A program made the translations under genes and the position numbers. From Blasia pusilla (taxonomy: Eukaryota): a stretch of DNA of 64,000 bases. The stretch is taken from positions 48,174,001 to 48,238,000 of the forward strand of contig CM114271.1 of assembly GCA_050084515.1 (NCBI GenBank), written 5' to 3'. Shown piece after piece: positions 1 to 34,312 of this stretch. The notes beneath the pieces were generated by a model. The model ran no database searches and was not told the origin of the DNA. It saw nothing but the letters and a program-made list of their open reading frames with translations. Positions within the stretch are counted from its first letter, which is position 1. Each line of letters starts with the position of its first letter.

Positions 1-721
1 AGACCAGGATAAGGAATATAGTCCATCATCCTTGGGAAGACATAGAGAAACAACGACCCGGAAAAGCATCATCCTTCACTTCACGAAACTACTGGATGAG
101 CTGAAAAGTTTCAGTTCCCAAGCGTCGACACCCGCCATCGAGAAATTGACAACGCTCGGATGGAAGCTTCAACGAAACGGGCACGCTCCGTGGACGGTCC
201 ATGGGGTGGTCGAAGAGGTGGCGGTGGATCTCTTGGTCGCTGATTTGCCCTAGGGGTTGCGCTTGTGGGATGAGAATCCGTCCGACGGGGTCCTAGACTG
301 GAATGTCCCCCTTTCTTATGACCAGATCGCGCTCCTATTTTCCTTTGCAGACGCTTATCTCAGTGACATGGGTTGTTTCTTAGTTTTGACTAGAGGGAGC
401 TAGGACGAGCTTTTCAACCTCCAGTACGTCAAGAGGTCGCTGAAGTGGAGGACGATGCAATCGTGGATCATCAAGAACAAGTACCCACTCCGATCCGCGA
501 CGAGTCAAATTCGGGTAAGGCTCTATTCCTCTCTCCAGATTATATTTCTCCGACGGATTGTTTTTGTCCATGAGCAACCCGTCGGAAGGCGACAGGTTGC
601 TGGTTGAGAGCAATCCGTCACTTTCCGACGGATCGCATCATTCCACAAACACAGGGAAAACGCATTACCACCTGCAACCCGTCGGAACCCGACGGGTTGT
701 AGGTGGTAATGCATTTTCCTT
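1..721 (+). mobile_element. Fragment (copy 0) of the MULE-like element: end of ParB-MTase exon 3 plus start of intron 3, inverted relative to copy A
   Basis: Translation ...VVEEVAVDLLVADLP*GLRLWDENPSD...SQIR followed by GTAAGG donor at ~515; matches 27117-27600 in reverse; ends in a hairpin at ~653-721. Confidence 0.85.
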
Positions 722-1555
722 GTTGGAAAAATCTCGTTTTTTATTACCTCCGAAGGAACCTCGGAAATGTACATTTGATGTAGTCTATGATTTCTTCAAC
801 CTCGTCATCTACAAATATACTCCTAACTCTCCTAGGTTCCTCTACAAAAGGAATGTCTTGGGATACAAGTGGCTCCTGTGGCCGATTATAGACGGGGATC
901 GAAAATGTTAGCGAATTTGAGAGCCTTGGCCCCCCCCTAGGTACACCATAACGGTCCCATGTAACCTGATTTGAGTCCCACCGCCTTCCTCGGTGGTATA
1001 TCTTGTACGCTCTATAATGTGACACCCATCCAGTATCAATATGTGCTTCGTCCTTGAAAATACCATGATGGCAATCCCACAAGTAGTAGGAATCCAGCAC
1101 GTCTGAGAGAAGAGAAGAAGCCTACGCCTTGTTTGACGATACTAGGGGAAGGTGCCAAAGTGAAGAAGCCGGCCAAACTGCCTCTTAAGTTGGACCAAGA
1201 GGGAAAGAGTCTGATCACTCACTTAACCAACGTGTTGGAATCCGACAGGTTGCCTAGAAGTGGTTAAAAAGGTGCAGTGGTCAAAAAGTGAAAAGTTGCA
1301 AGTCGTGGAAATCCGACGGGTTGCAAATTAGAAGTCCTCGGAGTACATAGACAATCACAGTCGAAAAGACACAAAAGATATTCAGCAAACTTTTAGAAAC
1401 ACCACCATCGTTCGAAAAAATTTTGTCCTTTATTAGATCCGAAAGAAGCTCGGAACTGTACATTTCATCTATTCTATGAATTATTTTGCCCTCGTCATCA
1501 AATAAATCCCTACTCCAAACGTTGCAATCAAGCTGGGTCCTTGAGTTCTTTGAAC

Positions 1556-4500
1556 TCACTCATCATTGTTCGAGAGCTCTTGCAAAATTACTTTCCGCCT
1601 TGCCCTCCCGATTTTTGGAATCGTGTTAAGTGACGATGGTGTCACTACCAATGGTGGGTGTGGAACCGGAGCTCTCGGCTTCAGAGGAGAGTTGTACGCC
1701 CCAACTAGCCTCTCGTAATCTGCCTTTGCCTCCTTGCAAAGGTCAAATAGTTCCTGCCTTCCCTCGAGGCAGAGAATGTTCGTGCCACTCTGCCAGGCAC
1801 CTTTGATACTCGCCCCTGAAAGGCCTACTAAGTCAAACACCAAGTCACCCAGCCTTGAGCAAAGCTCGATGAGCGTTTGCATCAGGGCTCGCGACTTTTC
1901 CCTTCCTCCAAGTAGTGGCGTACCGTCTTGCATGAAAATTCCCGGGGGGAAATTGTATAAACTATCTAAGCTGTACCCATCGGAGCATGGATCCACAGGA
2001 TCCAGGATCTTAAACACCTAGAAGTTGTGCTCGGGCCGAACGAAGCAATAAACATAGGAGTGGTCCATCTGTAAAGAAGCACGTTGGAAACAATGTCAGC
2101 AACTTGGCCAATGGTCTACTCTCAGTATGGTGACATAATGTGCAACACGTCCCCAAAGAACTTCGCTTAACCCCAGAGAACTTCTTTATAATACTAACAT
2201 TGGAGCAACCGGTTGTAGTCCGACGGGTTGTTTTTGTCCATGACCAATCCGTCGGAAGGCGACGGGTTGCTCGCTTAGACCCTGTCGGACAAATTCTCAT
2301 CCCACAAGCGCAACCCCGAGGGCAAATTAGCGACCAAGAGATCCACCGCCACCTCTTTGACCACCCCATGGACCGTCCAGGGAGCGTGCCCGTTTCGTTG
2401 AAGCTTCTATCCCAACGTTGTCAATTTCTCAATGGCGGGTGTCGACGCTTGGGAATTGAAACTTTTCAGCTCATCCACTAGATTCGTGAAGTGAAGGATG
2501 ACGCTTGTCCGGGTCGTTGTTTCTCTATGTCTTCCCAAGGATGATGGACTGTATTCCACATCCTAGTGTGCTCCTTGGGACAACCCTGGCGCCTCTCGCT
2601 TCCACTTCTCCTCAGTCTGCGGTCTGCTTGTTGGGGTCTCTATGACCTCAGACTCTTGTGGGGTTTTTCTCGCGGAGGAACTGGTCCGACCCTCTCTCCC
2701 CGCTCGCTCGGACGATTTCGACTCTGGCCTTGAATCTTCAGCCTCTCTTTGGGAAGACTCGGCCTCGGAATTCTTCGATCCCCTCGCCTTGCCTTTGAGA
2801 CCCGCTGTAGATTTTTCTTTGGTTTTGTGGACCTTGGACGCCAACTCCGCTGTCTCGAGGGCTTGCTCTTCCGCATCTCCTTCGAAAAAGTCTTCATGCT
2901 GCACAAAATTGGGGATGCCGTCCCTACCTGCGGCCACCGCATCATAAAGCAGGCGTAGATCTTTCTCCGTTATGTCCTCAGGGTCGTTGAAGTCCATCCA
3001 AATCGGGCAATTCTCCACCTCCCAATTGGACATGCTATGAGCCATCTCCGTGAATGTCTCTCCATCAGGCGGAGAAGCCCATAATTTGCAGGCTGCCGGT
3101 ATTTTTTGCCAGGTACCTGCATTCTTACAATGGACGAGGTACCTGAACACCATGCGTTGGGCAGCTCTTTAGTCGAACTGCATTGGCCGCTTGCTCCTGA
3201 AGATCTCGCTTCTTCTTTGCAAAATCCCTTTTCTTCCCCTCAATTTCTTCGTCAAGGTCTGCCTGAGGGAGGATGCAATCCTTGAACATCATCCTGAAAC
3301 CTGGGTTTTTGATGGGCTTGTCCCGGATGTCATCGAGCCAAAGTTTGAAATCATCAGCACTCTCTAGGTTTGCTTCCTCCACAAGTGGCTCTATTCTTTT
3401 CAGCTCTGCTTGGAGACCGTCGAGCATGGACTTCCCGATAAGCCGCAACGCATCCCAGAATAACCATTTGCGGAGCCAATGGGAGATCAGTCGATCAGAG
3501 ACACCCAGAGGATGGTGTGCCGCCCTCTTTTGGGCCTCTGTGCCCTCGAGACTAATTTTCATCAATCGTATTCTCGTAAATTTTCTTATTCCAGGCAAGG
3601 CAAATCGATGCACGCGATCGAGAGACACTTTCTCCCCAATCCGACCTTGTGGATATTCATCCCTTTTTCCGTTGGCGCTTGATTATCGCCTTCAGCTCCT
3701 TGTAGAAATCAGGACCAAGTTCGGGGTTGAGAATGGCAATGTAGCGCTGCATCTTGCTTGCCGTGTACTTCATAGCTGCAGATACTGCACCTTGGATGAA
3801 TTTTGCACGCTCAGACACAGACACTTTCTGCCTCCGCTCCAGCTCCAATGCAACACTCTTCTTGGCGGCCTGTATCTTCGACCAGCAAAGGATTGTCACG
3901 GCTGCATCTTGGGTAATAAATTTATTTGCCCTAGTCTTCTTTTTTATTTGTGCACCCTTTGCCAACATCTCATTTACAAGGGCGTCGCCCAAGAACCCCT
4001 TGTACTGTGTCGGGTGCGTCGTTAGCACTTTCTTCACCCGATCGCAATCCTGGATCCAGTGGTGGGTGACATTTCCCTCCGATACAATCCTGCACATCCA
4101 AACTCAATCTAAGAAATTTTGTAAGGTACATGGGTTCCTGCAACCCGTCGGACTCCGACAGGTCGTTACAGCTCAAGGTCGGATTGTAGCAACTAGCTAA
4201 ATTTTGCAACCCATCGAAGTCCAACGGATTGCATTCAGATTTGTGATTGCCTGGTTTCAACCCGTCGGACTCCGACGGGTTGTTAGATAGTCGGTATCAA
4301 AAGTGAAGATATCAACCCGTCGGAGTCTGACAAGTTGCGCAATGTCAATGAAAACTGCAATTTGACGCCAAAAATGTAGCTCCCAACTTTCAAATGCAAC
4401 CTGTCGGACCCCGTCGAGTTGCTTTCGGCCAAAAACCTCCAAAAATAGCTTCAAGTCAAGCAACCCGTCGGACTCTGACGAGTTTCTTTCTTCAAAAAAC

Positions 4501-6018
4501 ATCCAAAAAATGCGGCCACTCGAGCAACTCGTCGGACTCCGACGAGTTGCTTTCTTCAAAATACATCCAAAGAATGCGGCCATTCAAGCAACTCGTCAAA
4601 CTCCGACGAGTTGCTTTGGGCCAAAAACATCCTAAACCTGTGGTCAGTCGAACAACTCGTCGGAGTCCGAGGAGTTGGCCAAAAGCATCCTAAACCAGTG
4701 TTCAGTCGAGCAACTCGTCGGAGTCCGACAAGTTGCTTTCCAGATGTTGCACCCCAAAAATAGTGGCGAGTCAAACATCTTGTCGGAGTCCGACGGTTTG
4801 CAGCAAGAAGAAACTTACGTGTTCATGGCATGCATGGCCATCTCCACCGTTGCCATGTGATGAGGGTATGGATGAAGCACCACTGCCTTCACGCAAAAAT
4901 GTGCCTCCAAGGAGTTTGGGCGCTCCTCTGCAAACTTTGTCCACGCCATGAACCTGTGATTTCCATCCCAGATGAAGAAATATAGGTTCCTCATCCTGCT
5001 GAATTCCGTCCCCTCTATCGCCCTTCTGAATTCCTGATCTTTCATCCTCCAGAATGTGTCGAGCGATTCCAAGTCCTCCTCCATAATGAGTGCTTAGGTT
5101 CCATGGCCATTATAAGGCTGAACATAGAACGGAGGGAAGTTGTCGACGTAGGATGTTGTCGCCGTCGATTGTTTGAGCTTCGCAATATCCTCGTCAGACT
5201 GAATTTCGCGGACGTACTCCATTGTCCGCAATCGGCAGAGTGGAATTCTCCGAGCGTTGTGGCCCTCCATCAGTGCCATCTGCTTTACCACCTGTCACAA
5301 CGGGGACAAGATCAATAAGCTACACTGAATTGCCAATGAATTGCAACATGGACCTTCACATAATTCAAAAAACACAGATCCTCTCTTACGCGCTCGAAGA
5401 TTGGGTCGGTGTCTTGGCCAGCCAACTGCTCTGAGATAGCAGTTGGCAAGTCCACTGGAAACTCGTCGATCCGATAGAGGTCGATTTCTTCCGCCGGGCT
5501 TAGAGACGAGGATGACCGCTCTCCTGCTTCTTCAGCGATGTCCACCATCTCCATGCTGGCGATCATCATGACCTCATCGTCCGTGACTTGAACTTTGGCC
5601 GTTTCCGCTATATTGATTGTGTCCTCGGACTTCATCCGGGACATTTTCCGCATCTCAACACTTTTGGTTGGACGGGCAGGGCTTTCTTCAATGGCTATTT
5701 CTTTTTCCCTCCGAGCTTTAGCCAATTCTGCTCTCCTCACCGACGCATCTAGACGCTTCGTTTCTCGCTTTTCGTCGGCGACCCTTTCTTCAAGGCCTGC
5801 GACGCCTCAACCTCTGCGTTTTGTTTATCGAGCGCCTCCTGTACACGTTTTGCAAGAAACTCCTGCTTGTGCATCTCCGCTTCCCTTTCCTGCTCCTCAA
5901 TTTCTTGTTGCCTTATCTCATTGGCCGAACGAGGCCCTAGAGATGGTGATCCAGGAGTCCTCATGGACTTGGGAGTGAAGTTCCCACCCTTGTTTGCTTG
6001 AGATTTTTTCCTCGTCAT
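1556..6018 (-). pseudogene. ParB/Srx-like + beta-class DNA amino-methyltransferase-like fusion gene, 4 coding exons, disrupted
   Basis: ATG 6018; intron 1 5389-5292 (phase 0); exon 2 5291-4819 with RIPLCRLRTMEYVREIQSDEDIAKLKQS...FFIWDGNHRFMAW...VKAVVL...AMHAMN; intron 2 4818-4090 (AC|G joins in frame); last exon has EKSRALMQTLIELCSRLGDLVFDLVGLSGASIKGAWQSGTNILCLE; frameshifts, stops and a deletion near 2290. Confidence 0.82.
4394..4802. repeat. Tandem array of ~65-bp units, each with a GCAAC(C/T)CGTCGGA-N-TCCGACG(G/A)GTTGC palindrome, inside intron 2
   Basis: Palindromes near 4395, 4460, 4524, 4589, 4652, 4710, 4775; intervening sequences are homologous to each other. Confidence 0.85.
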
Positions 6019-6273: not shown

Positions 6274-7231
6274 TATTTATACTTTTCGAGCCGTTGGGCT
6301 GACCGTTGGGTCGCATCGTCCTTCCGACGGCGACGTGCCGGCCGTTACGGAGGTACCCGCGCAATCCGTCGGAGACCATTGGATTGCACGCTTCCCTCAT
6401 CAAGGGATAACAAAGCGGGCTTCCCGCACAACTTGTCGGAGGCCGACAAGTTGCATGCTTCCTTCATGTAAGCGAAACAAGGCAAGGCCCTTGCGCAACC
6501 CGTCTAAGGGCGACGGGTTGCACGCCTCGCCGTCTTTGGGCAAGAAGGTGCAGCACCCGTGGAACTCGTCGGAAACAGACGGTTTGCACGCTTCCTTCAT
6601 GTAAGTGTTACACCGTGAGATGATTGGGCAACCCGTCTGATGCTGACGGGTTGCGCGCCTCCGCCGTCTCCGGGCATGAAGGCGCGGTATCCGCGCAACT
6701 TCGTTGACGGGTTGCCAACCTCGTTCATGTTTGCGTTACAAGGTAAAGCAGAAGCGTGCAACCTGTCCAAAGCCTACGGGTTGCACGCCTTGCTTAGCTT
6801 GGGTTAATAGTTGAGTTACCAGGGCAAGCCGTCGGTTATCGACAGGTTGCACACTTTCCTATCCCTCGGGAAACAATGCGACAACGTATTGTTCCGAGGA
6901 AACCCATTGCAATCCGACGGGTCACAACATGTACCATGAGTTGGAAAATCCCGAAAAAACAAGCGATATCTTTTGTTTGATGCTAGCAAAATCGCCTCAA
7001 AAGATCTTTGGTCGGCAAGAAGGGTGTACCAACCCAACGGACTCCGACAGGTTCCAACAAAATGAAGTGTGCTTCGCAACCCACGTCTCTGCTTCCCAAA
7101 TTCTATAACCCACCTGACTCCAACAGGTTGCAAGAGAATTGAATCCATTGTGTCAAAAAATTTCACCTACCAAACTTCATCTTGTCAGTCAAATTTTGTC
7201 AGGAGAATCTGAGTTCCTATTCAATATAAAT
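6274..7231. promoter_or_regulatory. Putative bidirectional promoter region with two outward TATA boxes flanking a palindrome array
   Basis: TATAAATA on - strand at 6274-6281 (copy H 62830-62837); TATAAAT at 7225-7231 (copy H ~61574-61580); about ten degenerate CAACCCGTC/GACGGGTTG palindromes between them. Confidence 0.55.
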
Positions 7232-7276: not shown

Positions 7277-10200
7277 ATGGATAATTATGTGAAGCTCACT
7301 TGTGGCAGTCATCTAGAAATCAATCAGAAATCGTTCGACCGCAAGCTCTTGAGTCTTTCATAGCAGTGGATGAAAATTTTCTCTCAGTTCGATTTCTTCT
7401 CCAAATTGGAACCATCTTTGTATCCAAGGATGTTAGGATGGACAGTACAGAGGACATTATAGGTGAGACAGTCCAGCCAGTGATTGCAGACCGTAAAGTA
7501 TGGAATCTCCTACCTCTAGCAAATGGTCAATACAAAGTTTACGGCTTGCCCCTAAATTCCTTTGTTTCCCAAGTAGACGGTCGAGAATTTCCTAGTGCAT
7601 CGAGCTCTACGTTTGCAACTCCTAGCTCAGTAGATCTGGCTTTGACTCCAACTTCACACGCTCGTAACAATGTTGTTCTTCCTGAAGAGATTCCGGATGT
7701 TATCAACCTCAATGGATATGTCGGACACCAACTGGGCCCTCTGTCCGCCTACTCATTCCTCTTGCGAGTATCAGGCAATAGTTTGCTTTCTTCTCTGGCC
7801 TTGAAAATATTCAAGCATATTCTTGTCGACGAGCTGCCACCCACGTACCATGGTAATTGCATTTTTTAGTTGCCTCCACTTGTTTCTCCTGCTCAAAAGA
7901 TAGATGGAGGACGCTTGAAGGGTATGGACAGAAATTTTGATTGTCATCGATGGTGCAGGCTTCAACGGACTAGTGCTTCAATTCCAGATGGTCCTTGGAT
8001 TTTCTCTCGCCGCCAATGCGTTGGAGCCTTGGAGTGTAGAAGTCCAGCATGCCCGTATTTAGAGCGCAATGGGCGAGTCAATACGTCGTAATTCCCCCCC
8101 AAGAATGCAGAAACTCCATACGAGGTCAGTGCCACCATACCGCCGGGAGGACATCGATGTCCTCATTGTCAGGCATCCCCCTTCTACGTTGGAGCGTGTC
8201 CTGCATACATATTTTTCATTCTCCACGACTTGGGCTCCACGTCAGAGTACACAAGGCTGGCAGTTCATGTTGGCTCCCACACTTATCCTGTGACCGATGC
8301 AATTCAGAGACACATCAAGGAGGATGTGGCAAAGAAAGTTGCCGAGGTCTACAGAAACTCTCCGGGTTCAAAGCCCGGAGTGATCAAGCTCACAACAGCA
8401 TCACAAATTTGTGAACAATTGCTTGGAATCCCTCGATAGGGGGAGATCACGTCGGCTAAGGAGAAACAACTCTACAAAAATCTCGCATTTCTTGCTGATC
8501 CTGAATGCTTCCGGAATTTGCTGCGTCAAATACGGGTTTTGGATGGAAAGACGGCCAAAATGAATGCCATCACCTGAATCAAGGCCAACTCCAAATTTCC
8601 ATTCATTCAGAGATGGCAGTTCATGGGCCAAGGAGGCAAGGGATCCAGGTCGGTCAAGTGGCCTCGACCTTATAGATGGAATGAGGGAAGGGGAAGATCT
8701 TTACGGCAGCTGGGTAAGCTTTGATATTTGCTATAGAGTGCTGAACGGATGGTTGACAATGGGTGCTCACGTTTATGACCATGTGGAGAAGGGACTCAAA
8801 ACTATATTTGTCTATGAAGTAAAAGCAGAAGACGTTGGCAGTTTGAAGATGTGCTAGTTACTCTTATTGGAGGTGGTGAAGGAAAACAAAAGGCCACCTC
8901 CGGAAATTTATGGGTTCATGGCGGACAATGCACAACCAGGGTGGATTGCTATCAGGGAAGTGTTCTCGGGTGGAGAGGTTCAACCGGAGAGGGAAAGGTC
9001 GGATGCTTTCCATTGGCAAGAGTCTGTGACCCGGTACACCAAATCTTGCATCAAGGAGAATAAGAGGACAAAGCATGTCGCTCTACTCGAACGCTGCAAG
9101 GACAACAAAACCTTGAAACAGGCCATGGAATGCCAAGAAGAACTTCAAGGGTGGTGGAGGAAGCATGCGATTGAGGGGAAGTAAAAAGGGTTGTGCTCTT
9201 GGTTGAGTTGGTGGACTGTACGTATGAGACAATGGGGAAACTTCATGCGGCAGGTAAGTTCACTATTTCGTGTTGTCAAGCTCACGCTGAGAATTGTTTG
9301 TAAAGTTGCAGCTCAAGTTGAGAAGCATGGGAACTATAGGGATTTCAAACCGAAGAAACCAAGCAATTTTTTGGATGCGACAAGTTGCCCGAGTGTGCAA
9401 CCTGTTCGAAACGGACGGGTTGCCTGAGTGTGCAACCAGTCGGAAACCGACGGGTTGCATCCAGAATTTTGGTGCAACCCGTATACAAATATGCAAGTCG
9501 CATGTTTACAAGGCCTGCAAATAGTTCAACCCGGATGGGTTTCGGATGACTTGCACTTGGATCTTCTTGCCCGGAGTGGCCAAAGGTTCTTGCAACCTGT
9601 CGGAATCGGACGGGTTGCAGTAGGTGTTTCGTGGGTGTTGCAACACGTCGGGAACCGAGGGGTTGCAGAGTCGTTCATGGGATACCTCGGCCTTACAACC
9701 CGTCTGGTTCCGAAAGGTAGCTTATTTCTTTGACTTCTGAGCTATTTTCGTTCCCTTCTAACATTGCCATCGTTGCAGGGATTGAACATTCATGAAAATA
9801 CCCTCTGCCCCAACACAAGTGGAGCAGAAAGTGTTCATTCCTCCTGGAGGTCGTCACAAGCATGCCAACAAATTTCACTTGTGGAGGCATGCCAACAAGA
9901 CCAAGCAAGAGCAATGCTACAGTCTGCAACATCCCATATCTTCCTCACAAAAGGCATAACAAAAGGAAGGGGGTCTTCGATCTACGAGCTCTATGTCAGG
10001 GCGGCTGTGAGATCTGGTGATGAAAAACTCTATGTGAATGCCTTCAACTGGTGCGTAGCTGGAACTCCCCTCAAGCAAGACGTACACATTGGTGGGGACA
10101 TTTGTGGGCGGGTTTCAAGATGTCCCATACAGATGGTGGTAGAGCAGTCCGAACGAGACTCGTGGAGACCAGATAAGTATCTTGATTTCACGCAACTGAA

Positions 10201-12953: not shown

Positions 12954-13009
12954 GCTCATGAGACACCTGAATTGCTACATTTGGTACTCACACGAAGTAG
13001 GGAAGCTTA

Positions 13010-14268: not shown

Positions 14269-17200
14269 GGGGCTGGTATTCTGGCATGAGAGAGGACGAG
14301 AGGAGAGGAAGAGAGGAGAGTCTCTCTTAAAAAAAAAAAGGGCAGAATCCGCCTCCTCTCTTCAAAACTTTTTGAAAATTTTGAAAATTTTGTTTGCTTT
14401 CAAATTCATGAAATATTTAAAAGAGAGTAGCAAATGAACCACATTCAGGCCTAATGTAACTTTCTTTTTCCAGGCTTGCAAGAACAAGTAGACATCATAA
14501 GACCACTACAAACATCCTTCCATCACTCTCCATGTGAGCCCAATTTTCTTTACATTGCCTGTCTAAGCCAACTCTATAGTAAGCCGGGCTGAGGGGTATT
14601 AATATCGGCGGACCATCGGTAGATAATTTGACCCAAAGTAGCAATTTCATCTCAATGAAAGGTTCAAATAAAGACTCTAACTATGGTCTTAATAGACTCC
14701 TCTGCCCTTCAAGGTTTAACTTCTCTAAAGATGTGGTGGATATTATGGATTGTTGACTCTTCTTGCATTAAATATCCTATCCGATCAATACTCATCCATG
14801 AGGGTTTTACACAACAGAACAAATCACTCATCACTAATGGTAGCCAAAGACTTTCATGATAGCATTGGATGATGTTGGCTCATGAATGGGTGCATAAAGT
14901 ATACCATGGAGTGCTATGCGTTTGACAACTTGGTTTCACCATTCTCTCAACCACTGAGAAATGTATGCATCAAGAAGAAAATATGTTGAGATTGAGAGGA
15001 CAATGGAACCAAAAGGTTGATAGCTGTCAGGAGTAAAGAGGAACTGATGCACCTATGTCCCTTCATTCAGACCCTAAATGTCGGAATCTGACAGGTTGCA
15101 ACTCTTGCAACCCGTCGAAATCCAATGGGTTGCACCCCCTTTCAAGCAAGCACACCACAACAAAAGAAGGATCTTGAGAAGTGATTCCATTCCACCCTGC
15201 AATCCATGAGAATCCGACTGGTTGGGAATCTAACATGAGAATCCGACAAGTAGTAGGAATCCAACACGTCTCTGAAATACCGTGTTAGAGAAGAATGGTG
15301 TGACGATAATGGGGGAACAAGGCAAAAGTGAAGAAGCCTGCCAAAATGCCTGAAAAGTTGGACTAACAAGAAAAGAGTGGGATCACTCAAGCAGCCAACA
15401 TGTCGGAATCCGACAATTTTCCTGCAAGAGGTTTAAAATATTGTGACAAGTTGCAACGCGTCCGAATCCGACGGGTTACAAAATAAACAACCTCGAGTAG
15501 ATAGACCAACACAATCGATAAGAACAAAAACAATTCAGCATAAGTTTACAAAAACCATCCTGGTTCAAAAACTTTATGTCCTTTATTACATCCAAGGGAA
15601 GCTCGGAAATGTACATTTGATCTAGTCTATGATTTCTTCAACCTCGTCATCTACAAATTTACTCGTAACTCTCCTAGGTTCCTATACAAAAGGAATGTCT
15701 TGGGATACAAGTGGCTCCTCTGGCCGATTGTAGACGAGGATCAAAAATATTGGGGAATTCAAGAGCCATGGCCCCGCCCTAGGTACACCATAACGGTCCC
15801 ATGTAACATGATTTGAGTCCCAACACCTTCCTCGGCAGTAAATCTTGTATGCTCTGCAAGGTGACACCCATCTTGTATCAATATGTGCTCCGTCCATGGA
15901 AAGCACTAAATCCCAACTCCAAAACACTTCAATCAAGCTGGGTCCAATACATCTTTGAACTCACTCGTCATCGTCCGATAGCTCTTCCAAAATTACTCTC
16001 AACTTTTCCCTCCCGATTTTCGGAATAGTAGGAAGTGACGATGATGTCACTATTAATGCTGGTTATGGAACCGGAGCTATTGGCTTTGGAGGAGAGTTGT
16101 ATACTCCCACTAGCCTCTCGTAATCCACCTTTGCCTCTTTCCAAAGGTCAAAAAGTTCCGGCCTTCCCTCAAGGCAGAGAAAGTTCCTGCGACTGTGCCA
16201 GGCACCTCTGATACTCGCCCTTGATAGGCCCACTAAGTCAAAGACCAAGTCATCCGGCCTCGAACAGAACTCGATGAGCGTTTGCATCAAGGCAGGTGAC
16301 TTTTCCCTTCCTCCAAGTAAGGGGTTCGTGTCTTGCATGTAAATTCCCGGGGGGGGAGGAGGGGGAATTGTAGAGACTATCTAAGTTGTACCCATCGGAG
16401 CATGGATCCACTGGATCCGGGATCTGGAACACCTGGAAGTTGTGCTCGGGCCTTACAAAGCAGTAGAAAAATGATCGGTCCATCTATAAACAAGTAGGTA
16501 AAAAATAATGTCTGCAAAAAGAAAAAGCTAGTAGACCGCTGGTCTACTCTCCATAAACTGACATAATGTGCAAACCGTCGGGATCCGACGGGTTGCTTTT
16601 CAACCCGTCATACTAGTCCATACTAATTACCAACTCGTCCAAACTTGGCCTATAGGCCTGACGAAACAATGACCTGTCAGAGTCCGACGGGTTGTCTTAC
16701 AACTCTAAGACCCCTTTTTGGCCATGAGCAACCCGTCGGAAGCCGACAGGTTGCTCATCTTGCTGGACAAAACCTCCACCGTTTCGAGTGCGATGGTTGG
16801 CTTACAACTGAATACAATTGTTCACAGTTGATAAGTTCCTAATATAAGAGCAACCCATCACTTTTAGACAAGTTGCATCAATCCAGAAACATGGGGAAAA
16901 GCAGTGCTACTTGCAACCCGTCGGATTCCGACGGGTTGCAGTCAATGGAGACTTGTTGGTGAGTTTGCAACCGGTCGCTTTCAGACGGATTGCAACACCG
17001 CAGACACAAGCTATTGGGATCCGATGGGTTGCATGCTCAGATACAACCCGTCGAAGCCTGACGGGTTGATTTTCTGTTAAACTAAATTTTTTTAATAAGA
17101 GGACTTACCCGGACTTGACTCGTCGCCGATCGGAGTGGATACTCATTTTTAATTACCCATGATTGTGTCATCCTCCACTTCAGCAACCTCTTTACGCACT

Positions 17201-20200
17201 GAAGGTTGAAGAGCTTATCTTCGCTCCCTCTAGTGAGAACCAAGAAACAACCCATATCACTCAGATACGCGTCGGCAAAAGAAAACAACAACGCGATCTG
17301 GTCGTACGAAAGCGGGACATTCCAGTTTGGGATAGTGTCAGATGGATTTTTGTCCCACAAGAAAAACCCAGAAGGCAAATCCGCAATGAGGAGGTCCACC
17401 GCCACCTCCTCAACCACCCCATGCACCGTCCAGGGGGCGTGCCCATTTCGAAGGAGTTTTCATCACAGCACGGTCAATTTGTCGATGGCAGGTGTCGACT
17501 CCTAAGAACTGAAACTCTGCAGCTCATCGACAAGATGAGTCAAGTGAACAAGGACACTTGTCCTGATGGTTTTTTCCCTATGGCTGCCCAAGGATGATGG
17601 AGTGTATATCACATCCTTATCTCCTCCCTCGGACGAACAAGATGCCTCCCGCTTCCGCTTCTCCCGAGTCTGCTGTCGGCTTGTGGGAGTCTCTATTACC
17701 TCAAACTCCACAAGAGTTTTCTTGGACGAGGACCTGGTTAGGCCCTCTCGCCCCGCTTGCCCGGACGATTCTACCTCTCACCTTGAGGACTTAGCCTCTT
17801 TTCTAGAAGACTCTGCCTCAGATTTCCTCGATCCCTTCGCCTTCCTCTTTGGTGGTGACGACCTTGCCCACCAACTCCGCTGTCTCAAGGGCTTGCTCCT
17901 CCGCATCTCCTTCGAAAAAATTGTCACGTTGCACAAAGTTTGGAATGTCATCCCTACCTGCAACCACAGCATCATACACCTCCCAGTCGGACATGCCCTG
18001 TCCCATCTTCATGTCGTACATGAAGAATGCCTCTCCATCAGGCGCAGAAGCCCAAAATTTGCAGGTTGCCGGTAATTTTTGCCAGGTACCTGCATTCTTA
18101 CAATTGATGAGGTACCTATACACCATCCGCTCAGCAGCTCTTTGTCGAGATGACTTGGCCGCCTGGTCCTCAAGGTCCCGCTTCTTCTTTGCAAAATCTT
18201 GTTTTTTGGCATCTATTTCTTCATGCAGGTGTGCCTAAGGGAGGATGTGATTCTTGAACATCGTCCTGAATCCGGGGTTTTTCGTGGGCACTATTTTGAA
18301 CTATGTCATCAAGTCATAGTTCAAAATCTTCTGCAACCTCTAGGTTTGCTTCTTCTGGAATTGGCTCAATCTTCTTCAGCTCCGCTTGAAGATCCACGAG
18401 CATGGACTTCCCCAGAAGGCGTAACGCGTCCCAGAATGACCATTCCCGTACCCAATGGGAGATCACTGGATCTGAAACTCCCGAAGGACGGTGTGCCGCC
18501 CGCTTTTGGTCCTTAGTGCCCTCGAGACTGATTTTCATCAGTCAGATTCGCCTAAACTCGGATATCCCAGACAGTGCAAATTTGTGCATGTGTTCTAGAG
18601 ACACTTTCTCGCCGATCCGACCCTGTGGATCTTCGTCTCTCTTCCGCTGGCGCTTGATTATTGCCTTGAGCTCTTTGTAAAACTCTGGACCAAGTTCGGG
18701 GTTGAGAATTGCAATGTAACGCTCCATCTTGCTTGTAGTGTACTTTGTAGCTACAGATACAGAAACATGAATAAACTTTGCACATTTCGACGCTGACACG
18801 TTCTCTCTTCGCTCCAATTCCAACGAAGCACTCTTCTTGGCGGCTGGATCTTGGACCAACATAGGATTGTGACGGCTGCATCTTGGGAAATGAAGGTATT
18901 TGCCCAAGTCTTATTTTTTATTTGAGCTCCCTTTGCCAGCATCTCATTTACCAGACCGTCGCCAAGGAATCCCTTGTACTCTGCCCGGTGCGTCGTAAGC
19001 ACCTTCTTCGCCCTGTTGCAATCCTGGATCCAATGGTGGGTGACGTTCCCCTCCGATACAATCCTGCACATCCAAACATAAGGTAAGAATACTACAACCT
19101 ATCGGGTTCTTGCAACCCGTCGAATTCCGCCAGGTCGTAATTGTGTCAACCCATGGGGGTCGTAATGGTAGCATAGAGATAAATGTTGCAATCCGTCGGA
19201 GTCCGACGGGTTGCAACATGTATCTTTGTGTTACACTTATTGCAACACTCTTGAAATTTTTAGAGAGAATTGCAACCCATCAAAGTCCGAAAGGTCGCAC
19301 TCTCTTTTCGTGACTTTCTGGTCCAACCGATTTAGTCATTGGTTACAACTCGTCGGACTCCGATGGGTTGTAGAATGACTTCAATTCGGAGACAGGTTTC
19401 CGGAAAAAAACTGCACATATCCACCCGTTGGAGTCCGACAGGTTGCGCAATGCCTTGTAAAGCTGGAATTGGACGCCTAAAAGCAAGCTCTCGTACTCTG
19501 ACCACCTACTCTAGGGGGGGAAATGCAACTCGTCGGAGTCCGACGAGTTGCTTTTAGGCGTCCGATGATTTGTTACCTCTCGTTGTGCAACCCGTCGGAG
19601 TCCGACCGATTGCAGAACAAATAAATCATGCATTTATTTTTCCACTCGCTGATGTTCGACTGGCTTCAGTATCCCGGATTAATTTGGTATGCTTGGCCAC
19701 CAAGCAACTCGTCGGACTCAGACGGTTTGCTTTACTATGAAATTGACCACAAAGAGGATAGTGGCAAGAGACTCAAATCATTCTTGACCATCTTTAAGCT
19801 TTCCAATTATTCAACATGTATGACTCCGACAGGTTGAAGCAATCAAACTTAAGGAAGAGGAAACTGATGTATTCATCGCATGCATTGCCATTTCCACCAT
19901 TGCCATGTGATGAAGAAATGGATGGAGCACCACTGCCTTCACGTAAAAAATGCGCCTCCAATGAATTTGGGCGCTCCTCTGCTGTCGCGCCCCTACTCTC
20001 CTTGAACGCCAATCTCTAGTGTTGCGGAAGCGTACGTTCAGTAGGACACGGTCTCATCGCCGATCTGCACCCAAACACGCATTCTCGTTAGTCGGGTCCG
20101 TGCCAACCAGCGTTCCAACCCACCGAGTTCTCAACTTGGCGTCTCATCAAGCTCAACCTTCCTTAATTCCTAGTTTCCAAAACATGGCAAGTCCTTCAAG

Positions 20201-24242: not shown

Positions 24243-26067
24243 GGGGCAGGTATTCTGACAGGAGAGAGTAAGAGAGGAGAGGAAGAGAGGAAGAGAGGAG
24301 AGTCTCTCTTAAAAAAAAAGGCCAAATCTGCCTCCTCTCTTCAAAACTTTTTGACATATTTGAAATTTTTGTTTGCTTTAAAATTCAGGAAATCTTTAGA
24401 AGAGAGTATTTAGTGGTCCACATTTGGCCCTAAAAAAACCTCCTCTTTCCTGGGGGCGAGAAAAAAGGAGACATCATAAGACCACCCAAAACATTTTTCC
24501 ATCACTCTCCATGTGAGCCTAAGTTTCTTAACATTCCCTGTCTCGGTCAACAAAAAGCAGTGCCCTTGGTATTTTTGTTGGAGGAGCACCCGGATGGGTA
24601 CCTCTCTTTTTGCAAGGATTGTTTCCTGCATCATGGCCTCCCCTAAATTGCCCCATAACCAACTTTCTGTCGGTTATGAATGGTGTCTGCTCAAGACCAA
24701 CTTTCTGAAATGTGAACAAATCAGATCCTAAGGCTAAGAAACCGAGAAGCTGCACCCCTCCCAACCCGTAAGAAAGCTCACCATAAGAAAGGAAAGATTT
24801 TTAGAAGTGATTTTCTTCCACCCTGCACCCACGACGATCTAACGGGTTGGGAATCCGAAATGGCAATCCGACAGGTAGTAGGAATCCTGCACATCTTCGA
24901 CAAGAAAAGAAGCCTACAACTGGTTGGACGAATGAAGGGGAACGAGCCAGAAGTCAAGAAGCCCGCCACAATGCGTCAGAAGTTGGTCTCACCGAGATAG
25001 AGCCCGATCACTCAAGCAGTCAACCTGTTGGAATCCGACAACTTGCCTAGAAATGGTTAAAAAGTTGCAGTGGGCAAAAAGCAAAAAGTTGCAACTCGTC
25101 GGAATCATACTGGTTGCACAATTGTAATTCTGAGTAGCTAAAAGAACACAATCCACAAGTCCAAAAACATATTCCAGAAAACTTTTACAAACACCATTAT
25201 GGGTTGAAAAAATCTCGTCCTTTATTACCTCCGAAGGAACCTCGGAAATGTACATTTCACCTAGTCTATGATTTCTTCAGCCTCGTCATCTACAAATTTA
25301 CTCCTAACTCTCCTCGGTGACAGTACCAAAGGAATGTCCTGGGATTCAAGTGGCTCCTCTGGCCGATTGTAGACGGGGATCGAAAATGTTGGCGAATCCG
25401 AGAGCCTTGGACCCCCCCCTAGGTACACCATAACGGTCCCATGTCTCAGGTCCCACCGCCTTCCTCGACAGTATACCTTGTACGCTCTGCAATGTGACAC
25501 CCATCCAGTATCAATATCTGCTCCGTCCTCGGTAATACCATTATGGCAACCACACTGGTAGAAGGAATCCAACACGTCTGAGAGAAGAAAAGAAGCCTAC
25601 GCCTGCCTTTACGAGTTGAGGGGAAGGTGCCAAGGGAAGAAGCCCGCCAGACTGCCTCTTAAGTTGGACCAACATGGAAAGGGTCCGATCAGGCAACCTG
25701 TCGAGAATCAGACAAGTTGCCTGGAGGTGGTAAAAAGGGTGCAGTGGTCAAAAAGCGAAAAGTTTCAAGGAGGAGAAATCCGACGGGTTGCAGTGGTCAT
25801 AAAGTGAAAGTTGCAAGCAGGAGAAATCCGACGGGTTGCAAAATAGAAGTCCGTGGAGTACATAGACGATCACATTCGAAAAGACAAAAAATGATCAGCA
25901 AACATTTACAAGCACCACCATCGATCGAAAAAATCTTCTGCTTTATATCATCCGAAAAAAGCTCGGAACTGTACATTTGATCTATTCTATGAAATCTTTT
26001 GCCTCATTATCAAAAAACTCCCTACTCCAAACGCTGCAGTCAAGCTGGGTCGTTGAGTTCTTTGAAC

Positions 26068-28937
26068 TCACTCGTCATCGTCCGAGAGCTCTTGCAAAAT
26101 CACTTTTGGCCTTGCCCTCCCGATTTTGGGAATCGTTGGAAGTGACGATGGAGTCACTACCAAGGGTGGCTCTGGAACCGGAGCTCTCGGCTTCGGTGGA
26201 GAGTTGTACGCCCCAACCAGCCTTTCGTATTCTGCCTTTGCCTCCTTGCAAAGGTCAAACAGTTCCTGCCTTCCCTCGAGGAAGAGAATGTTCCTGCCAC
26301 TCTGCCAGACGCCTTTGATACTTGCCCCTAAAAGTCCCACTAAGTCGAACACCAAGTCACCCGGCCTTGAGCAGAGCTTGATGAGCGTTTGCATCAGGGC
26401 TAGCGACTTTTCCCTTCCTCCCAGAAGTGGGGTACTGTCTTGCATGTAAATTCCCGGGGGGGAATTATACAAACTATCTAAGCTATACCCATCTGAGCAT
26501 GGATCCACAGGATCCTGGATCTTGAACACCTGGAAATTGTGCTCGGGCCGAACGAAGACGTAGGAGTGGTCCATCTGTAAATCAACACGTTGGAAACAAT
26601 GTGAGAAACTAAAGAAGTCGCCTTGAGAACATTTTCAATAATTGACTTTGGATCAACCTGTCCGAGTCCGACGGGTTGTTTTGTCCCGGACCAGCCCGTC
26701 GCCTTCTGACGGGTTGGTCAGGGAGAAAACAACCCGTCAGGCTCCGTTGTTTTTGTCCGTGAGCAACCTGTCGGAAGGCGACGGGTTGCTGGCCTAGAGC
26801 AGCCCATGCTTGCCTGAGAGCAATCCGTCGCTATCAGACGGGTTGCATCCAAAAACCAAAATCAACTGGGAAAACCCAAAAGAAACTGCAACCCGTCGAT
26901 TTCCGACGGGTTGCAGGTACACCGCGGTTTTCCCTGTATGTGGGAAAGATGCAACCCGTCGGAAATCGACGGGTTGCTCTTAGCCGAGCATGGGCTCTAA
27001 GCCAGCAACCCGTCGCCTTCCGACGGGTTGCTCACGGACAAAAACAACCCAGATTGACTCTCATTATACACATCATTAAAATATAATTGAAATTATAGTA
27101 CAGGAATTGAGCCTTACCCGAATCTGACTCGTTGCGGATCGGAGTGGGTACTCGTTTTTGATGATCCACGATTGTGCCGTCCTCCACTTTAGCGACCTCT
27201 TGACGCACTGGAGGTTGAAGAGCTTTTCCTCACTCCCTCCAGTCAACACCAAGAAGCAGCCCTTGTCACTCAGATAGGCATCTGCAAAGGAGAACAAAAG
27301 TGCAATCTGGTCATAAGTGAGCGGCACATTCCACTCAGGTACCTCGTCCGATGGATTCTCGCCCCAAAGTCGCAACCCCGAGGGCAGATCGGCGATCAAG
27401 AGATCCACCGCAACCTCTTGGACCACTCCATTCACCGTCCGGGCAGCGTGCCCGTTTCGTTGGAGCTTCCGTCCCAGCGTTGTCAATTTTTCGATGGTTG
27501 GTGTTGACGCTTGAGAACTGAAGCTCTTCAGCTCATCCAGTAAAGGAGTGAACTGAAGGAGGACGCTTGTCCGGGTTGTTGTTTGTTTGTGTCTTCCCAA
27601 GGATGATGGGCTGTATTCTCCTTGGGACAACCCAGGCACCTCTCGCTTCCGCTTCTCCCTGGCCTGGGGACGGCTTGTCGGGGTTTCTATGACCTCAGAT
27701 TCTGGTGGAGTTTTTTTCGCCGAGGATCTGGTTCGACCCTCTCTCCCCGCTCGTCCGGACGATTCCGCCTCTGGCCTTGAATCTTCAGCCTCTCTTTGGG
27801 AAGACTCGGCCTCTGAATTTTTCCCTCCCCTCGCCTTGCCTTTGAGACCCGCTGTGGATTTGTCTTTGGATGTGCGGACCTTGGAAGCTAACTCAACTGT
27901 CTCGTGGGCCTGCTCTTCTGCATCTCCTCCGAAGAAGTCTTCAGGCTGGACGAAATTGGGGATGTCGTCTTGTCCTGAGGCCACTGCATCATGAAGTAGG
28001 TACCTCGTCTAGTGTAATGCTGTCGAACAGAATCAGCCGTCTGCTCCTGTAGATCTCGCTTCTTCTTCGCTTGATCCCGTTTGTTCCCCTCTACTTCTTC
28101 ATCAAGCTCTGCCTGAGGGAGGACGCAAACCTTGAACATGGTCTTGAATCCTGGGTTTTTGGTTGGCTTGTCCTGGATGTCGTCGAGCCAAACCTCGAAA
28201 TCTCCAAACTTTCAAGGTTTGCTTCCGGCGGAATGGGCTCTAATCTTCTGAGCTCCGCTTGCAGACCGTCCAGCACGGACTTCCCAATTACCCGCAACGC
28301 GTCCCAGAACGACAATTCGCGTAGCCAATGCGAGATCACTGGATCGGACACACCCGGAGGATGGTGTGCCGCCCTCTTCTGGGCCTCTGAGCCCTCGTGA
28401 CTGATTTTCATCAGTCGTATCCTCCTAAACTTGCTTATCCCGGACAACGCAAACCGATGCACGCTATCCACCGACACTTTCTCCCCAATCCGACCATGCG
28501 GATCTTCATCCCTCTTCCGCTGGCGCTTGATAATCACCTTCAGCTCCTTGTAGAACTGCGGACCAAGTTCGGGATTGAGAATGTTGATGTATCGCTGCAT
28601 CTTGCTCGCCGTGTATTTCGTTGCAGCAGATACTGCAGCTTGGATGAATTTGGCGCGCTCAAACGCAGATACCTTCTCCCTCCGCTCCAGCTCCAATGCA
28701 TCGCTTTTCTTTGCGGCATGTATCTTCGACCAGCAAAGGATGGTTACGGCTGCATCTTGAGAAATAAACTTGTTTGCCCAAGTTTTCTTCTTAATCTGAG
28801 CACCCTTTGCAAGCATCTGATTGACAAGGGCATCGCCCAAGAACCCCTTGTACTCTCCCGGGTGCGTTGTAAGCACCTTCCTCACCCGATCGCAGTCCTG
28901 GATCCAGTGGTGGGTGACATTCCCCTCCGATACAATC
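26068..28937 (-). pseudogene. Exons 3-4 of the ParB-MTase gene; best-preserved methyltransferase domain
   Basis: VDLLIADLPSG...LLFSFADAYLSDKGCFLVL...SWIIKN...SQIR | intron 27117-26575 (phase 0) | MDHSYVFVRP...GGREKSLALMQTLIKLCSRPGDLVFDLVGLLGASIKGVWQSGRNILFLE. Confidence 0.82.
26746..27050. repeat. ~300-bp fold-back built from nested palindromes in intron 3
   Basis: TTGTTTTTGTCCGTGAGCAAC... at the left arm and ...GTTGCTCACGGACAAAAACAA at the right arm; central CAACCCGTCG/CGACGGGTTG palindrome at ~26890-26913. Confidence 0.8.
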
Positions 28938-30799
28938 CTGCACATCCAAACTCAACCCGTCAGGAAATTACATGGGTTCCTGCAACCCGTCGGACTCCGA
29001 CGGGTCGTCACAGCTGAAGGTCGGATTCTAGCAACGAGCTAAATGATGCAACCCGTTGGAGTCCAACAGATTGCATTCAGATTTGCTAATGCCTAGTAAG
29101 CAAACATCCTTCCTATTCCATTGCCACTCAAGACATCTTTCGTGGCGATGATCTCCATTTTTGCCTCCCGAGCTGATGCAATTCGCTTTGCTCTCTCCAC
29201 CGTTGGCCTACACATTCTGTTTCTCTTCACTCCATTTCTAGACTCAAACAGAAATAGTGGATTGAGATCATCCACCTTCTCCGGGTGCATGTTGACATCA
29301 ATCTTGGGTTGAATACGAAATGCAAAGGACTCTGTAATGCGAACATGCTCCAAACTTCCCCCGTCTACGAGTCTAAAACCGGAACTTGTAAGATTGTCCA
29401 CTTCGTCTTGAGTGCAGTTCGTACCTACGGCGATGGGCCAAATCGTGGGGGTATTCCCCGGAGCTCCAATGGCAGCCGGATAAGACTTCCGGAAAGTGCA
29501 AGATTCATTTGGGCAGAGGAAGTACTTCAATTGATCCCCGGTTCTCGTGAAATGATGAAAGGTTTTGAGTCCCCAAAACCCAGGCAGTGGTTTAGGGTCC
29601 TTGTATAGTTCTTATTTAGGAAAGTGCCGCAAGCTCTCCTAATGCCATCAGATCCTGCCCTACAGGTGGGTCCAGCACCCAGGAAACACCTATTGCAACT
29701 CGTCCGATTCTGACGGATTGCAAGAACCTTTGGCCACTCCGGGCTGGAAGATCCAAGTGCAAGTCATCCGAAACCCATCCGGGTCGAACTATTTACAGGC
29801 CTTGTATACATGCCACTTGCATACTTGCATATGGGTTGCACCAAAATTCTGGATGCAACCCGTCGGATTCCGACGACTTGCACACTCGGGCAACCCGTCG
29901 CATCCAACAGCTTGCTTGGTTTCTTCGGTTTGAAATCCCTATAGTTCCCACGCTTCTCAACTTGAGCTGCAACTTAACAAACAATTCTCAGCGTGAGCTT
30001 GACAAGACAAAATTGTGAACTCACCTGCCGCATGAAGTTTCCCCATTGTCTCATACGTAGAGTCCACCAACTAATCCAAGAGCACAACTCTTTGTACTTC
30101 CCCTCAATCGCATGCTTCCTCCACCACACATGAAGTTCTTCTTGGCATTGCATGGCCTGTTTCAAGGTTATGCTGTCCTTGCAGCGTTGGAGTAGAGTGA
30201 AATGCTCTGTCCTCTTATTCTCCTTGATGCAAGATTTGGTGTACCGGGTCATAGATTGTTGCCAATGGAAAGCATCCGACCTTTCCCTCTCCGGTTGAAC
30301 CTCTCCACCCCAGAACACTTCGCAAATAGCAATCCACCCAGATTGTGCATTGTCCACCATGAACCCATAAATTTCCGGAGGTGGCCTTTTATTTTCCTTC
30401 ACCACCTCCAATAAGAGTAACCAACACATCTTCAAACTTCCAACGTCTTCTGCTTTTACTTCACAGACAAATATAGTTTTGAGTCCCTTCTCCACATGGT
30501 CATAAACGTGAGCACCCATCGTCAACCATCCGTTCAGCACTCTGTAGCAAATATCAAAGCTTACCTAGCTGCCGTAAAGATCTTCCCCTTCCCTCATGCG
30601 ATCTATAAGATCGAGGCCACTCGACGGACCTGTGGTTGACATTTTGAAGACATAGGCCCTGGATCCCTCGCCTCCTTGGCCCATGAACTTCCATCTCTGA
30701 ATGAATGGAAATCTGGAGTTGGCCTTGATTGTGGTAATGGCATCCATTTTGGCCGTCTTTCCATCCATAACCCGTATTTGACGCAGAAAATTCCTCAGT

Positions 30800-33700: not shown

Positions 33701-34312
33701 TGGAGCTCCCGGGAATACCCCCACGATTTGGCCCATCGCCGTAGGTACGAACTGCACTCAAGACGAAGTGGACAATCTTACAAGTGCCGGTTTCAGACTC
33801 GTAGATGGGGGAAGTTCGGAGCATGTTCACATTACAGAGACCTTCGCATTTCGTATTCAACCCAAGATTGATGTCAACATGTACCCGGAGAAGGTGGATG
33901 ATCTCAATCCATTATTTCTGTTTGAGTCTAGAAATGGGTTGAAGAGAAACAGAATGTGCAGGCCAACGGTGGAGAGAGCAAAGCGAATTGCAGCAGCTCG
34001 GAAGGCAAAAATGGAGATCATCGCCACGAAAGATGTCTTAAGTGGCAATGGAATAGGAAGGATGTATTGGGTCAAGAACAACACTGTAAATTCAAGTGTC
34101 ACAAGGGTGTATGTGGTGCACATCTGTTGCTTTCCCACATGTTCATGTGATGATTTTGTCCAAAGAGAGACAAGTGGCAAAAGGTATTTCCCTTGTAAGC
34201 ACATGTACTATGTGTTGCTGGTAGTTTTAAGAGAGTCGGAGGTAGGAGTAGGAATCCACCAACCAATTCTGTCCCTCAAAGAAGTTTGAAGTATTTTAAA
34301 CAAACCACTTTG
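30800..34312 (+). pseudogene. MULE transposase (longest open segment; DD and E motifs, SWIM)
   Basis: ORF 30676-32673 carries Zn finger, SFDICY, FMADNA, DAFHW; donor after GNFMRQ (GTGAGT ~32364), acceptor TTGCAG ~32815; TSGAESVHSSW; SWIM in 33639-34289; stops in exon 2. Confidence 0.88.

Follow-up and report, generated by a model that had tools for sequence, protein, structure and literature searches.

A 64-kb stretch of the Blasia pusilla genome (the window, in whose coordinates all positions are given unless the related loci L003, L005 or L008 are named) is occupied largely by a single transposon family, and the non-coding DNA of this family carries many copies of a 29-bp palindrome. Self-comparison indicates that rearranged, decayed copies of one large element, 75–95% identical to one another, make up a mosaic that covers ~43 of the 64 kb, whereas ~18 kb is DNA outside the element family. 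Across copies, the left end is followed by gene 1 (minus strand), then by a spacer of ~3 kb, the transposase gene (plus strand) and the right end. The ends are GA-rich, imperfectly inverted segments of ~45–60 bp that are common to the copies. From 24243 to 34706, one left and one right end are located 10.5 kb apart, with internal inverted duplications inside this interval and no readable target-site duplication (TSD). Because no two ends in the window can be paired as one simple insertion, a TSD could not be read for the element. Readable introns with canonical GT-AG ends, together with the retroelement genes described below, mark the window as eukaryotic DNA, and exon-intron borders were set by using homology together with the GT-AG dinucleotides in the sequence.

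The copy of the palindrome at 16912–16940, within the gene-1 intron of the element copy designated B, reads TGCAACCCGTCGGA-T-TCCGACGGGTTGCA and forms a perfect 14-1-14 palindrome, exactly as the initial annotation of this DNA had stated. Full copies with three or fewer mismatches are present 20 times in the window, versus 0.00 expected from 100 shuffles, and half-sites with two or fewer mismatches are present 120 times, versus 0.27 expected. A looser rule, which permits as many as seven mismatches among 28 positions and as many as five per arm, yields 100 palindromes in the window and none in 200 first-order random sequences. Among the seven near-perfect copies that had been listed, six indeed carry only one to three mismatches (673, two; 4256, three; 19187, one; 26887, two; 28981, three; 62452, three), but the seventh, at 37042, carries four.

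The geometry of the palindrome is fixed. Left and right half-sites are offset by exactly 15 positions in 56 pairs (the next most common offset accounts for 6 pairs), and the arms are held to one consensus whereas the central base has an information content of only 0.01. Many copies originated in tandem units. Specifically, 63 gaps between neighboring palindromes are 150 bp or shorter, 27 of which measure 62–69 bp, and the tandem units that carry palindromes are 35–67 bp long, with spacer arrays formed by 64- and 67-bp units. The exact palindrome has no match in the viral and prokaryotic collections, Rfam yields no match across the window, and the motif strings were found in the literature in only two unrelated primer contexts. 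The palindrome carries no stop codon in any frame, and the arrays therefore yield spurious long open reading frames (ORFs), as observed at 26763–27086 (+), 3973–4296 (−) and 32366–32673 (+), with array peptides such as QPVGFRRVA and CNPSDSDGL.

All 100 palindromes reside within family DNA, and none is in its supported exons. Transposase coding sequence that is backed by outside homologues, 10.8 kb in all, contains no palindrome, compared with a mean of 24.8 overlaps upon circular shifting; only 15 of 5000 such shifts, which keep the clustering of the palindromes, gave no exon overlap. Likewise, no palindrome is present in 15 gene-1 ORFs or in the ORFs for an integrase core (rve, 37568–38113), a reverse transcriptase (RVT, 50590–51429) and gag. 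More than half of the palindromes are found in the intergenic spacer, copies are located 30–400 bp upstream of the first ORFs of both genes, and additional clusters occupy one intron of each gene (Table 1). These results uphold the earlier description of a motif present in the introns and spacer and absent from exons and retroelements. A motif positioned in the non-coding parts of one transposable element family, and in tandem-repeat arrays, conforms to the pattern expected of a VANC-type system (see below).

Two parts of the earlier description require revision. Copies had also been assigned to both arms of the element. The right subterminal region carries one degenerate palindrome ~170–200 bp from the end, and on the left side the first palindromes appear ~800 bp from the end, in the possibly coding 3′ part of gene 1, but the inverted ends themselves hold none. 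Similarly, the non-family DNA at 10.5–14.27 kb, which had been called an ATAT1 island (10500–14269), is indeed free of palindromes, but its label is not confirmed: Pfam reveals a copia-type gag (13737–14081, E 3.9e-11) and a weak kinase-like piece (10759–11187, E 8.8e-4), and no acetyltransferase.

A different palindrome exists in the closest relative of the element that was found. Sixteen related loci, totaling 142.7 kb, were taken from metagenome contigs scanned with the transposase alignment; these include several near-duplicates and represent a handful of families. The half-site of the window is absent from all 16. Of these, L003, a contig of 2,078 bp, is the closest and exhibits 47% identity in its best segment. 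Its core exon ends with WGNYIRL/gtaatg, and a 24-bp palindrome, ATTGCTAGCGCCGGCGCTAGCAAT, begins 24 nucleotides past this donor and is present in three copies within 200 bp after it, versus 0 expected. The next exon of L003 is positioned at ~1390, and the ATTGCTAGCGCCGGCGCTAGCAAT copies therefore occupy the intron that is homologous to that of the window. Neither the window nor any of the other 15 loci contains this palindrome.

The related loci differ from each other in additional ways. In L003, a further 18 complementary bases flank the middle palindrome on either side and lengthen it into a perfect 60-bp hairpin (1172–1231), an outward growth like that seen at 673 in the window. L002 has no intron at the homologous place. 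In both L005 (12130–12164) and L008 (4938), which represent a distant family, a perfect 17-1-17 palindrome separates the transposase core from the SWIM exon, and the 800-bp segment that includes it is inverted between the two loci. L005 and L008 are 80–87% identical copies of one family, and their shared single palindrome is therefore not an independent occurrence.

The transposase belongs to a large group of proteins. A 677-codon ORF at 30640–32673 has three relatives with 37–39% identity in a collection clustered at 90%, and 368 relatives of the transposase were recovered from a representative library at E up to 0.001. At E up to 0.01, no Pfam family matches the window ORF or any of 13 relatives. 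When the threshold was relaxed to E up to 1 for the 14 sequences in alignment A3, no Mutator-like element (MULE), Transposase_mut or SWIM family was recovered, and the hits obtained were scattered, restricted to single members and at chance level. There is no sequence match in PDB. Protein-language features (Atlas) fall mostly into MULE/SWIM clusters.

A structure predicted by using 77 sequences has a mean confidence (pLDDT) of 77.3, with values mostly above 90 from approximately residue 60 to residue 560. The core of this model (residues ~345–569) is closest to the transposase of the IS256-family element ISCth4 (Foldseek probability 0.97–1.00; Z 8.0, 164 aligned, root-mean-square deviation (rmsd) 11.7), and the next matches are retroviral integrase cores (Z ~7.5) and Hermes (Z 6.3). 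Residues 68–316 resemble 1odh_A, a GCM domain bound to DNA, with 137 of 157 residues aligned (Foldseek probability 0.91, Z 6.5, rmsd 4.4), which gives the model a predicted DNA-binding fold. Z values of 6.5–8 are within the 'middling' range of the comparison tool, and we therefore call the protein Mutator-like rather than a proven member of that group. The sequence carries D399, D466 and D492-A-F-H495, the last of which we take to fit the [C/D]xxH signature. IS256 is a bacterial relative of Mutator, and MULE transposases carry WRKY-GCM1 fingers. Other hallmarks of the Mutator/MULE superfamily are a SWIM finger at the C terminus, long inverted ends and TSDs of 8–10 bp.

The downstream exon of the transposase gene matches SWIM with an E value of 0.013 and a score of 15.5 bits, for which the cut-off is 19.6. 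Disorder in the model begins at residue 570, and the last 100 codons of the 677-codon ORF are of the palindrome-array type. Given the splice donor CAG/GTGAGT at 32365/6, the tail of this ORF, including its palindrome-encoded peptides, is intron. Only in copy C do outside homologues match the core exon in one piece. In copies A (7741–9310) and E2 (59460–60961), it is matched in two adjoining pieces, which suggests a frame break near 8648 in copy A and near 59981 in copy E2.

Gene 1 is an orphan for which no homologues could be detected among 5.8 billion proteins. No NCBIfam family matches it, and no relative is present in any of the 16 related loci. The C-terminal, S-adenosylmethionine-binding part of N6_N4_Mtase (PF01555) matches all four gene-1 copies with E values from 3.4e-5 to 0.037, the best score being 24.4 bits, below the cut-off of 26.7. 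N6_N4 methyltransferases have the catalytic motif (D/N/S)PP(Y/F), and the motif-IV-like stretch of gene 1 reads DLPS in three copies, not DPPY. Given the sub-cut-off score and the DLPS sequence, we do not classify gene 1 as an N6_N4 methyltransferase. Membership in the ParB-parS group was also rejected, since none of 17 gene-1 ORFs from four copies contains a ParB-type Pfam domain at E up to 10. Nothing relevant was found in the literature on a transposon-encoded ParB or methylase in Mutator-like elements.

Table 1. Coordinates of the transposon genes, element ends and palindrome clusters in the 64-kb window.
Feature	Position	Strand	Remarks
Left GA-rich end	24243..24310	+	further left ends near 14269, 51787, and reversed near 36868
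Gene 1, orphan accessory gene, weak N6_N4 methylase-like C-terminal motif	24770..29085	-	paralogues in other copies
Transposase core exon, copy C: GCM/WRKY-like domain and DDE core	30823..32365	+	
Downstream transposase exon, weak SWIM finger	33435..34301	+	
Right GA-rich end	34650..34706	+	another at 10476-10495; two more reversed
3 palindromes, inverted-duplication junction in copy A	573..701	.	
2 palindromes, 3′ part of gene 1	1226..1325	.	paralogous sites 15106-15480, 25090-25840, 35519-36232, 53075-54182
2 palindromes, gene-1 intron of copy A	2204..2271	.	
11 palindromes, copy A spacer: upstream of gene 1 and 64-bp tandem array	4139..4802	.	
10 palindromes, copy A spacer: 67-bp tandem array and upstream of transposase	6360..7132	.	
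5 palindromes, copy A intron after transposase core exon	9396..9722	.	intron ~9340-9752
5 palindromes, gene-1 intron of copy B	16569..17070	.	
Perfect 14-1-14 palindrome, gene-1 intron of copy B	16912..16940	.	single-stranded DNA fold -17.2 kcal/mol, z -8.0
9 palindromes, copy B spacer	19111..19838	.	
6 palindromes filling gene-1 intron of copy C	26652..27032	.	minus-strand donor GTAAGG near 27121, acceptor ..ttacag near 26575
2 palindromes, copy C, 30-120 bp upstream of first gene-1 ORF	28981..29075	.	
2 palindromes, copy C, inverted duplicate of transposase intron	29694..29882	.	
2 scored palindromes, with degenerate ones by eye, transposase intron of copy C	32507..32603	.	donor CAG/GTGAGT 32365/6, acceptor near 32815
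Single degenerate palindrome ~190 bp inside right end	34489..34517	.	paralogous copies 22812, 57331, 37042
2 palindromes, old diverged spacer fragment	48559..48836	.	degenerate half-sites to ~48990; next piece 49117-49205 matches 4886-4975
5 palindromes, gene-1 intron of copy E1	55051..55315	.	
3 palindromes, transposase intron of copy E2	59134..59356	.	
13 palindromes, copy E2 spacer: upstream of transposase and 67-bp array	61673..62672	.	

Some copies of the element have been rearranged internally. Copies A and C include large inverted duplications (14–530 versus 27102–27618, 29832–30794 versus 31595–32557, and 29101–29674 versus 33497–34069), and the junctions of such duplications coincide with palindrome clusters (573–701 and 29854). 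Palindromes may serve as rearrangement hot spots. In the gene-1 3′ part of copy E1, a repeat unit occurs twice ~690 bp apart (53247–53666 and 53936–54354; also 1068–1499 and 24860–25290), and each copy of this unit has one palindrome that follows an identical 23-base lead-in.

We propose that the palindromes are family-specific binding sites for a dimer of an element-encoded protein, in a large two-gene transposon of the Mutator-like (IS256/MULE-type) kind, and we assign this interpretation a probability of approximately 0.5. One protein subunit would contact each 14-bp arm across the free central base. The first candidate for the reader of the palindrome is the transposase, which could act through its N-terminal GCM/WRKY-like zinc-finger domain, and the second candidate is the product of the orphan gene 1. 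Tandem duplication of 35–67 bp units has increased the number of sites in the intergenic (promoter) spacer and in one intron per gene, and the protein could therefore load densely on non-coding DNA, with no sites in the exons. The systems VANC/VANDAL21, TnpA/Spm and AtMu1c suggest by analogy that binding would probably activate transcription, or counteract silencing, in a manner private to the family and at a target that is rich in CpG and prone to methylation. The protein might also help to assemble the transposition complex.

The initial annotation had likewise envisioned a dimeric protein, either a ParB-methyltransferase or a transposase. The portion of this idea that is retained fits the fixed 14-1-14 geometry, the free center, the single arm consensus with little compensatory change, the family-specific motif, the different palindrome in L003 and the GCM/WRKY-like domain in the transposase model. 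The other portion has fared less well, as no ParB domain was found in gene 1 and its methylase likeness is below the cut-off.

Several observations weigh against our proposal. A transposase must bind the inverted ends of its element to transpose, and no palindrome is located there. The structural matches of the transposase model are only middling, as noted above. L003 carries a different palindrome, but none of the other 15 related loci carries a multi-copy palindrome. Co-variation was seen cleanly only once, on one 2-kb contig, with the DNA-binding part of the L003 protein located off the contig. Furthermore, L005, representing one decayed family, has a direct 10-mer, TTGAAACATG, that is present 33 times versus 7.2 expected, mostly upstream of the transposase. 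Finally, the palindrome copies in the window give no direct sign of constraint. Among dispersed paralogues, conservation is 0.844 in the palindromes versus 0.862 in their flanks (0.874 versus 0.864 at non-CpG positions). Since conservation of the paralogous palindromes does not exceed that of the flanks, the copies decay neutrally.

Decay is fastest at CpG sites. The consensus palindrome contains four CpGs (eight CpG positions), and the CCG and CG sites that had been pointed out in its arms are indeed present. Among 482 departures from the consensus, 176 are at the eight CpG positions, and 106 of those are transitions. CpG-site conservation among paralogues is 0.72 in the palindromes versus 0.82 in the flanks, and the ratio of observed to expected CpG is 0.73 in family DNA and 0.61 elsewhere in the window. 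The fast decay and the depletion of CpG are consistent with, but no proof of, a methylated genome and 5-methylcytosine deposited by the host.

The remaining points that count against a protein-binding role also favor an alternative that we regard as unlikely. The palindromes could constitute a structure-driven satellite, in which hairpins or cruciforms spread within the element by replication slippage, template switching and inverted duplication, with no dedicated binding protein, and persist because the motif is self-copying and does no harm in non-coding DNA. Single palindromes fold as single-stranded DNA at −16 to −19 kcal/mol, and many are organized in arrays of 35–67 bp units, as such a satellite would be. 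Flanks extend the palindrome by 2 bp in 21 of 100 copies (6.2 expected) and by 3 bp in seven (1.6 expected), and longer extensions reach 10 bp at 673 and 18 nucleotides in L003. Within the gene-1 intron of copy C, positions 26740–27050 form one near-perfect inverted repeat, a hairpin of ~300 nucleotides with a folding energy of −135 kcal/mol (z −23). Palindrome clusters also mark the ends of large inverted duplications, and among paralogues the palindromes are not conserved above their flanks. In addition, 182 hairpin cells are changed on both sides, versus 142 ± 10 in shuffles, although the rows compared are paralogues and tandem units and thus are not independent.

Other features are left unexplained by a satellite that is driven by structure. 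Approximately 30 sites per element, embedded in differing flanks, keep one 14-nucleotide arm and an exact one-base center. Despite its CpGs, the palindrome outlasts the spacer within arrays, with between-unit similarities of 0.81 versus 0.65, 0.68 versus 0.52, and 0.74 versus 0.63 in three tandem arrays. Moreover, a sister family has a different, specific palindrome in the same intron. The fraction of hairpin cells that are paired is 67.9%, versus 65.9% in shuffles, indicating that sequence is kept rather than mere pairing. The most common double change, T8/A22, is seen eight times versus ~6 expected from column frequencies, and compensatory change overall is weak and is confounded by the relatedness of the rows. 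Together, these patterns favor a putative sequence-specific reader over structure alone.

An even less probable explanation is that the palindrome is a host-genome or multi-family motif, such as a host factor site, an insulator or a general dispersed repeat, and appears to be element-wide only because of the content of this window. The non-family DNA examined amounts to just ~18 kb, and a patch at 48.5–49 kb is outside recognizable copies of the element. Specifically, the sole palindromes between 37.3 and 51.8 kb, at 48559 and 48808, belong to this patch, which contains degenerate sites over 450 bp. However, the piece adjoining this patch is homologous to family spacer (E 8.5e-14), which identifies the region as a diverged family-spacer fragment. 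The lack of copies in the retroelement ORFs and in the 10.5–14.27 kb island, and of half-sites in the 16 related loci, likewise argues against a motif of general distribution.

The palindromes might instead act at the RNA level, where intronic hairpins in both pre-mRNAs would tune splicing or, as at a hairpin-RNA locus, feed host silencing as small RNAs. Two canonical GT-AG introns consist largely of palindromes, and the first palindrome of L003 begins shortly after its donor. If transcribed, the intron of copy C could form a stem of ~140 bp, with five 29-bp palindromes arranged symmetrically about the 26887 copy. We nevertheless consider this role very improbable. Over half of the copies are in the intergenic spacer, a 14-bp stem is short for dicing, and the long hairpin is near-perfect solely in copy C and only partial in two other copies. 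The weak covariation and the absence of an Rfam match also offer no encouragement for an RNA function.

Abundant short hairpin repeats that spread through intergenic, non-coding DNA are well known, and include bacterial REP elements, miniature inverted-repeat transposable elements (MITEs) and foldback elements. The palindromes resemble these repeats in their abundance, their ability to form hairpins and their non-coding locations, but they are confined to one transposon family and exhibit neither TSDs nor independent insertions. The same 29-bp unit is found in many flanking contexts, as would be expected if every palindrome were a foldback- or MITE-like unit of ~29 bp that had inserted on its own, a possibility that the initial annotation had linked to a TSD at every copy. 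This idea is largely refuted and was rejected, because direct flanking repeats of 3 bp or longer are present at none of the 100 palindromes (1.6 expected), 39 well-kept palindromes have matching positions at paralogous places with no clean case of presence versus absence and a sole gain that is a 35-bp tandem unit, and the element's own ends are unrelated GA-rich repeats.

If the palindromes are bound by an element-encoded protein, as we propose, then this system would be of a kind that is already known: a transposon with private cis-motif arrays that are read by its own protein. To our knowledge, private protein-binding motif arrays used for self-activation or for escape from silencing are known in few transposons, all of which are from Arabidopsis or maize. 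TnpA of the En/Spm (CACTA) elements binds 12-bp subterminal motifs, some of which occur in inverted pairs. The family described here is similar in having many internal motif copies, with TnpA being an element-encoded binder and its counterpart here being predicted. Unlike the subterminal Spm motifs, however, the sites here reside in introns and in the central spacer, and the ends are nearly motif-free. In ParB-parS systems, a 16-bp palindromic site, often present in several copies, is bound by a dimer. Again the multicopy, dimer-type palindrome is shared, whereas the present system is a eukaryotic transposon with a site of 29 bp rather than 16 bp, and no ParB domain was found in gene 1.

Several parallels exist with VANDAL21, a Mutator-like element of Arabidopsis. 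According to two reports, VANC21 binds YAGTATTAY motifs, which form fast-changing tandem arrays in VANDAL21 introns and upstream regions, and removes methylation there, whereas VANC6 uses other motifs, AGTTGTCC/AGTTGTAC (PMC5735166, PMC10398659). VANDAL21 is a multi-gene element with a short family motif that is concentrated upstream of genes and within introns and is absent from exons, fast-changing tandem repeats, related families with different motifs, and a lineage-specific accessory gene. All of these features have counterparts here, the different motif of a related family being seen in L003 only. The VANC motif is 8–9 bp long and has one orientation, unlike the 29-bp, dimer-type palindrome with four CpGs observed here. 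Another difference is that no VANC-like protein is recognized in the present family, whose orphan gene 1 carries a weak methylase-like motif.

A second precedent involves a transposase. In a recent study, the AtMu1c transposase alone is reported to bind cognate motifs and cause hypomethylation and activation of its own family, its chromatin immunoprecipitation (ChIP) peaks are located at terminal inverted repeats, and TnpA is described as a transposon-encoded regulator derived from a transposase (10.64898/2026.08.24.746577). Here too, a Mutator-like transposase is a candidate reader of the motif. Unlike AtMu1c, for which that study places the peaks at terminal repeats, the element studied here has terminal repeats that lack the motif.

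A more ambitious hypothesis, which must be viewed as doubtful, is that this family has evolved a convergent VANC counterpart in an uncharacterized Mutator-like clade. A private protein, carrying either the GCM/WRKY-like domain or the methylase-like accessory sequence, would read the palindrome, dense loading of this protein on promoters and introns would block or reverse host CG/CHG methylation, and palindrome and reader would diversify together. In the boldest form of this hypothesis, the methylase-like partner would write a competing mark. If true, then each sister family would escape silencing privately.

Three features of this system are new, namely, the use of a CpG-rich, dimer-type palindrome of 29 bp as the motif, a clade of transposases that Pfam does not cover, and an orphan partner gene with methylase-like character. 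The transposase represents a sizeable family in which a GCM-like domain and a DDE core are predicted to fold with confidence, and for which Pfam has no model. For those who annotate related genomes, the spurious long ORFs produced by palindrome arrays serve as a warning. A 29-bp motif is essentially unique in a genome, and therefore binding, methylation and co-evolution are all directly testable. If our proposal is true, this element would provide a clean and easily recognized example of a transposon that reads its own private motif, in a transposase clade with at least 368 public relatives.

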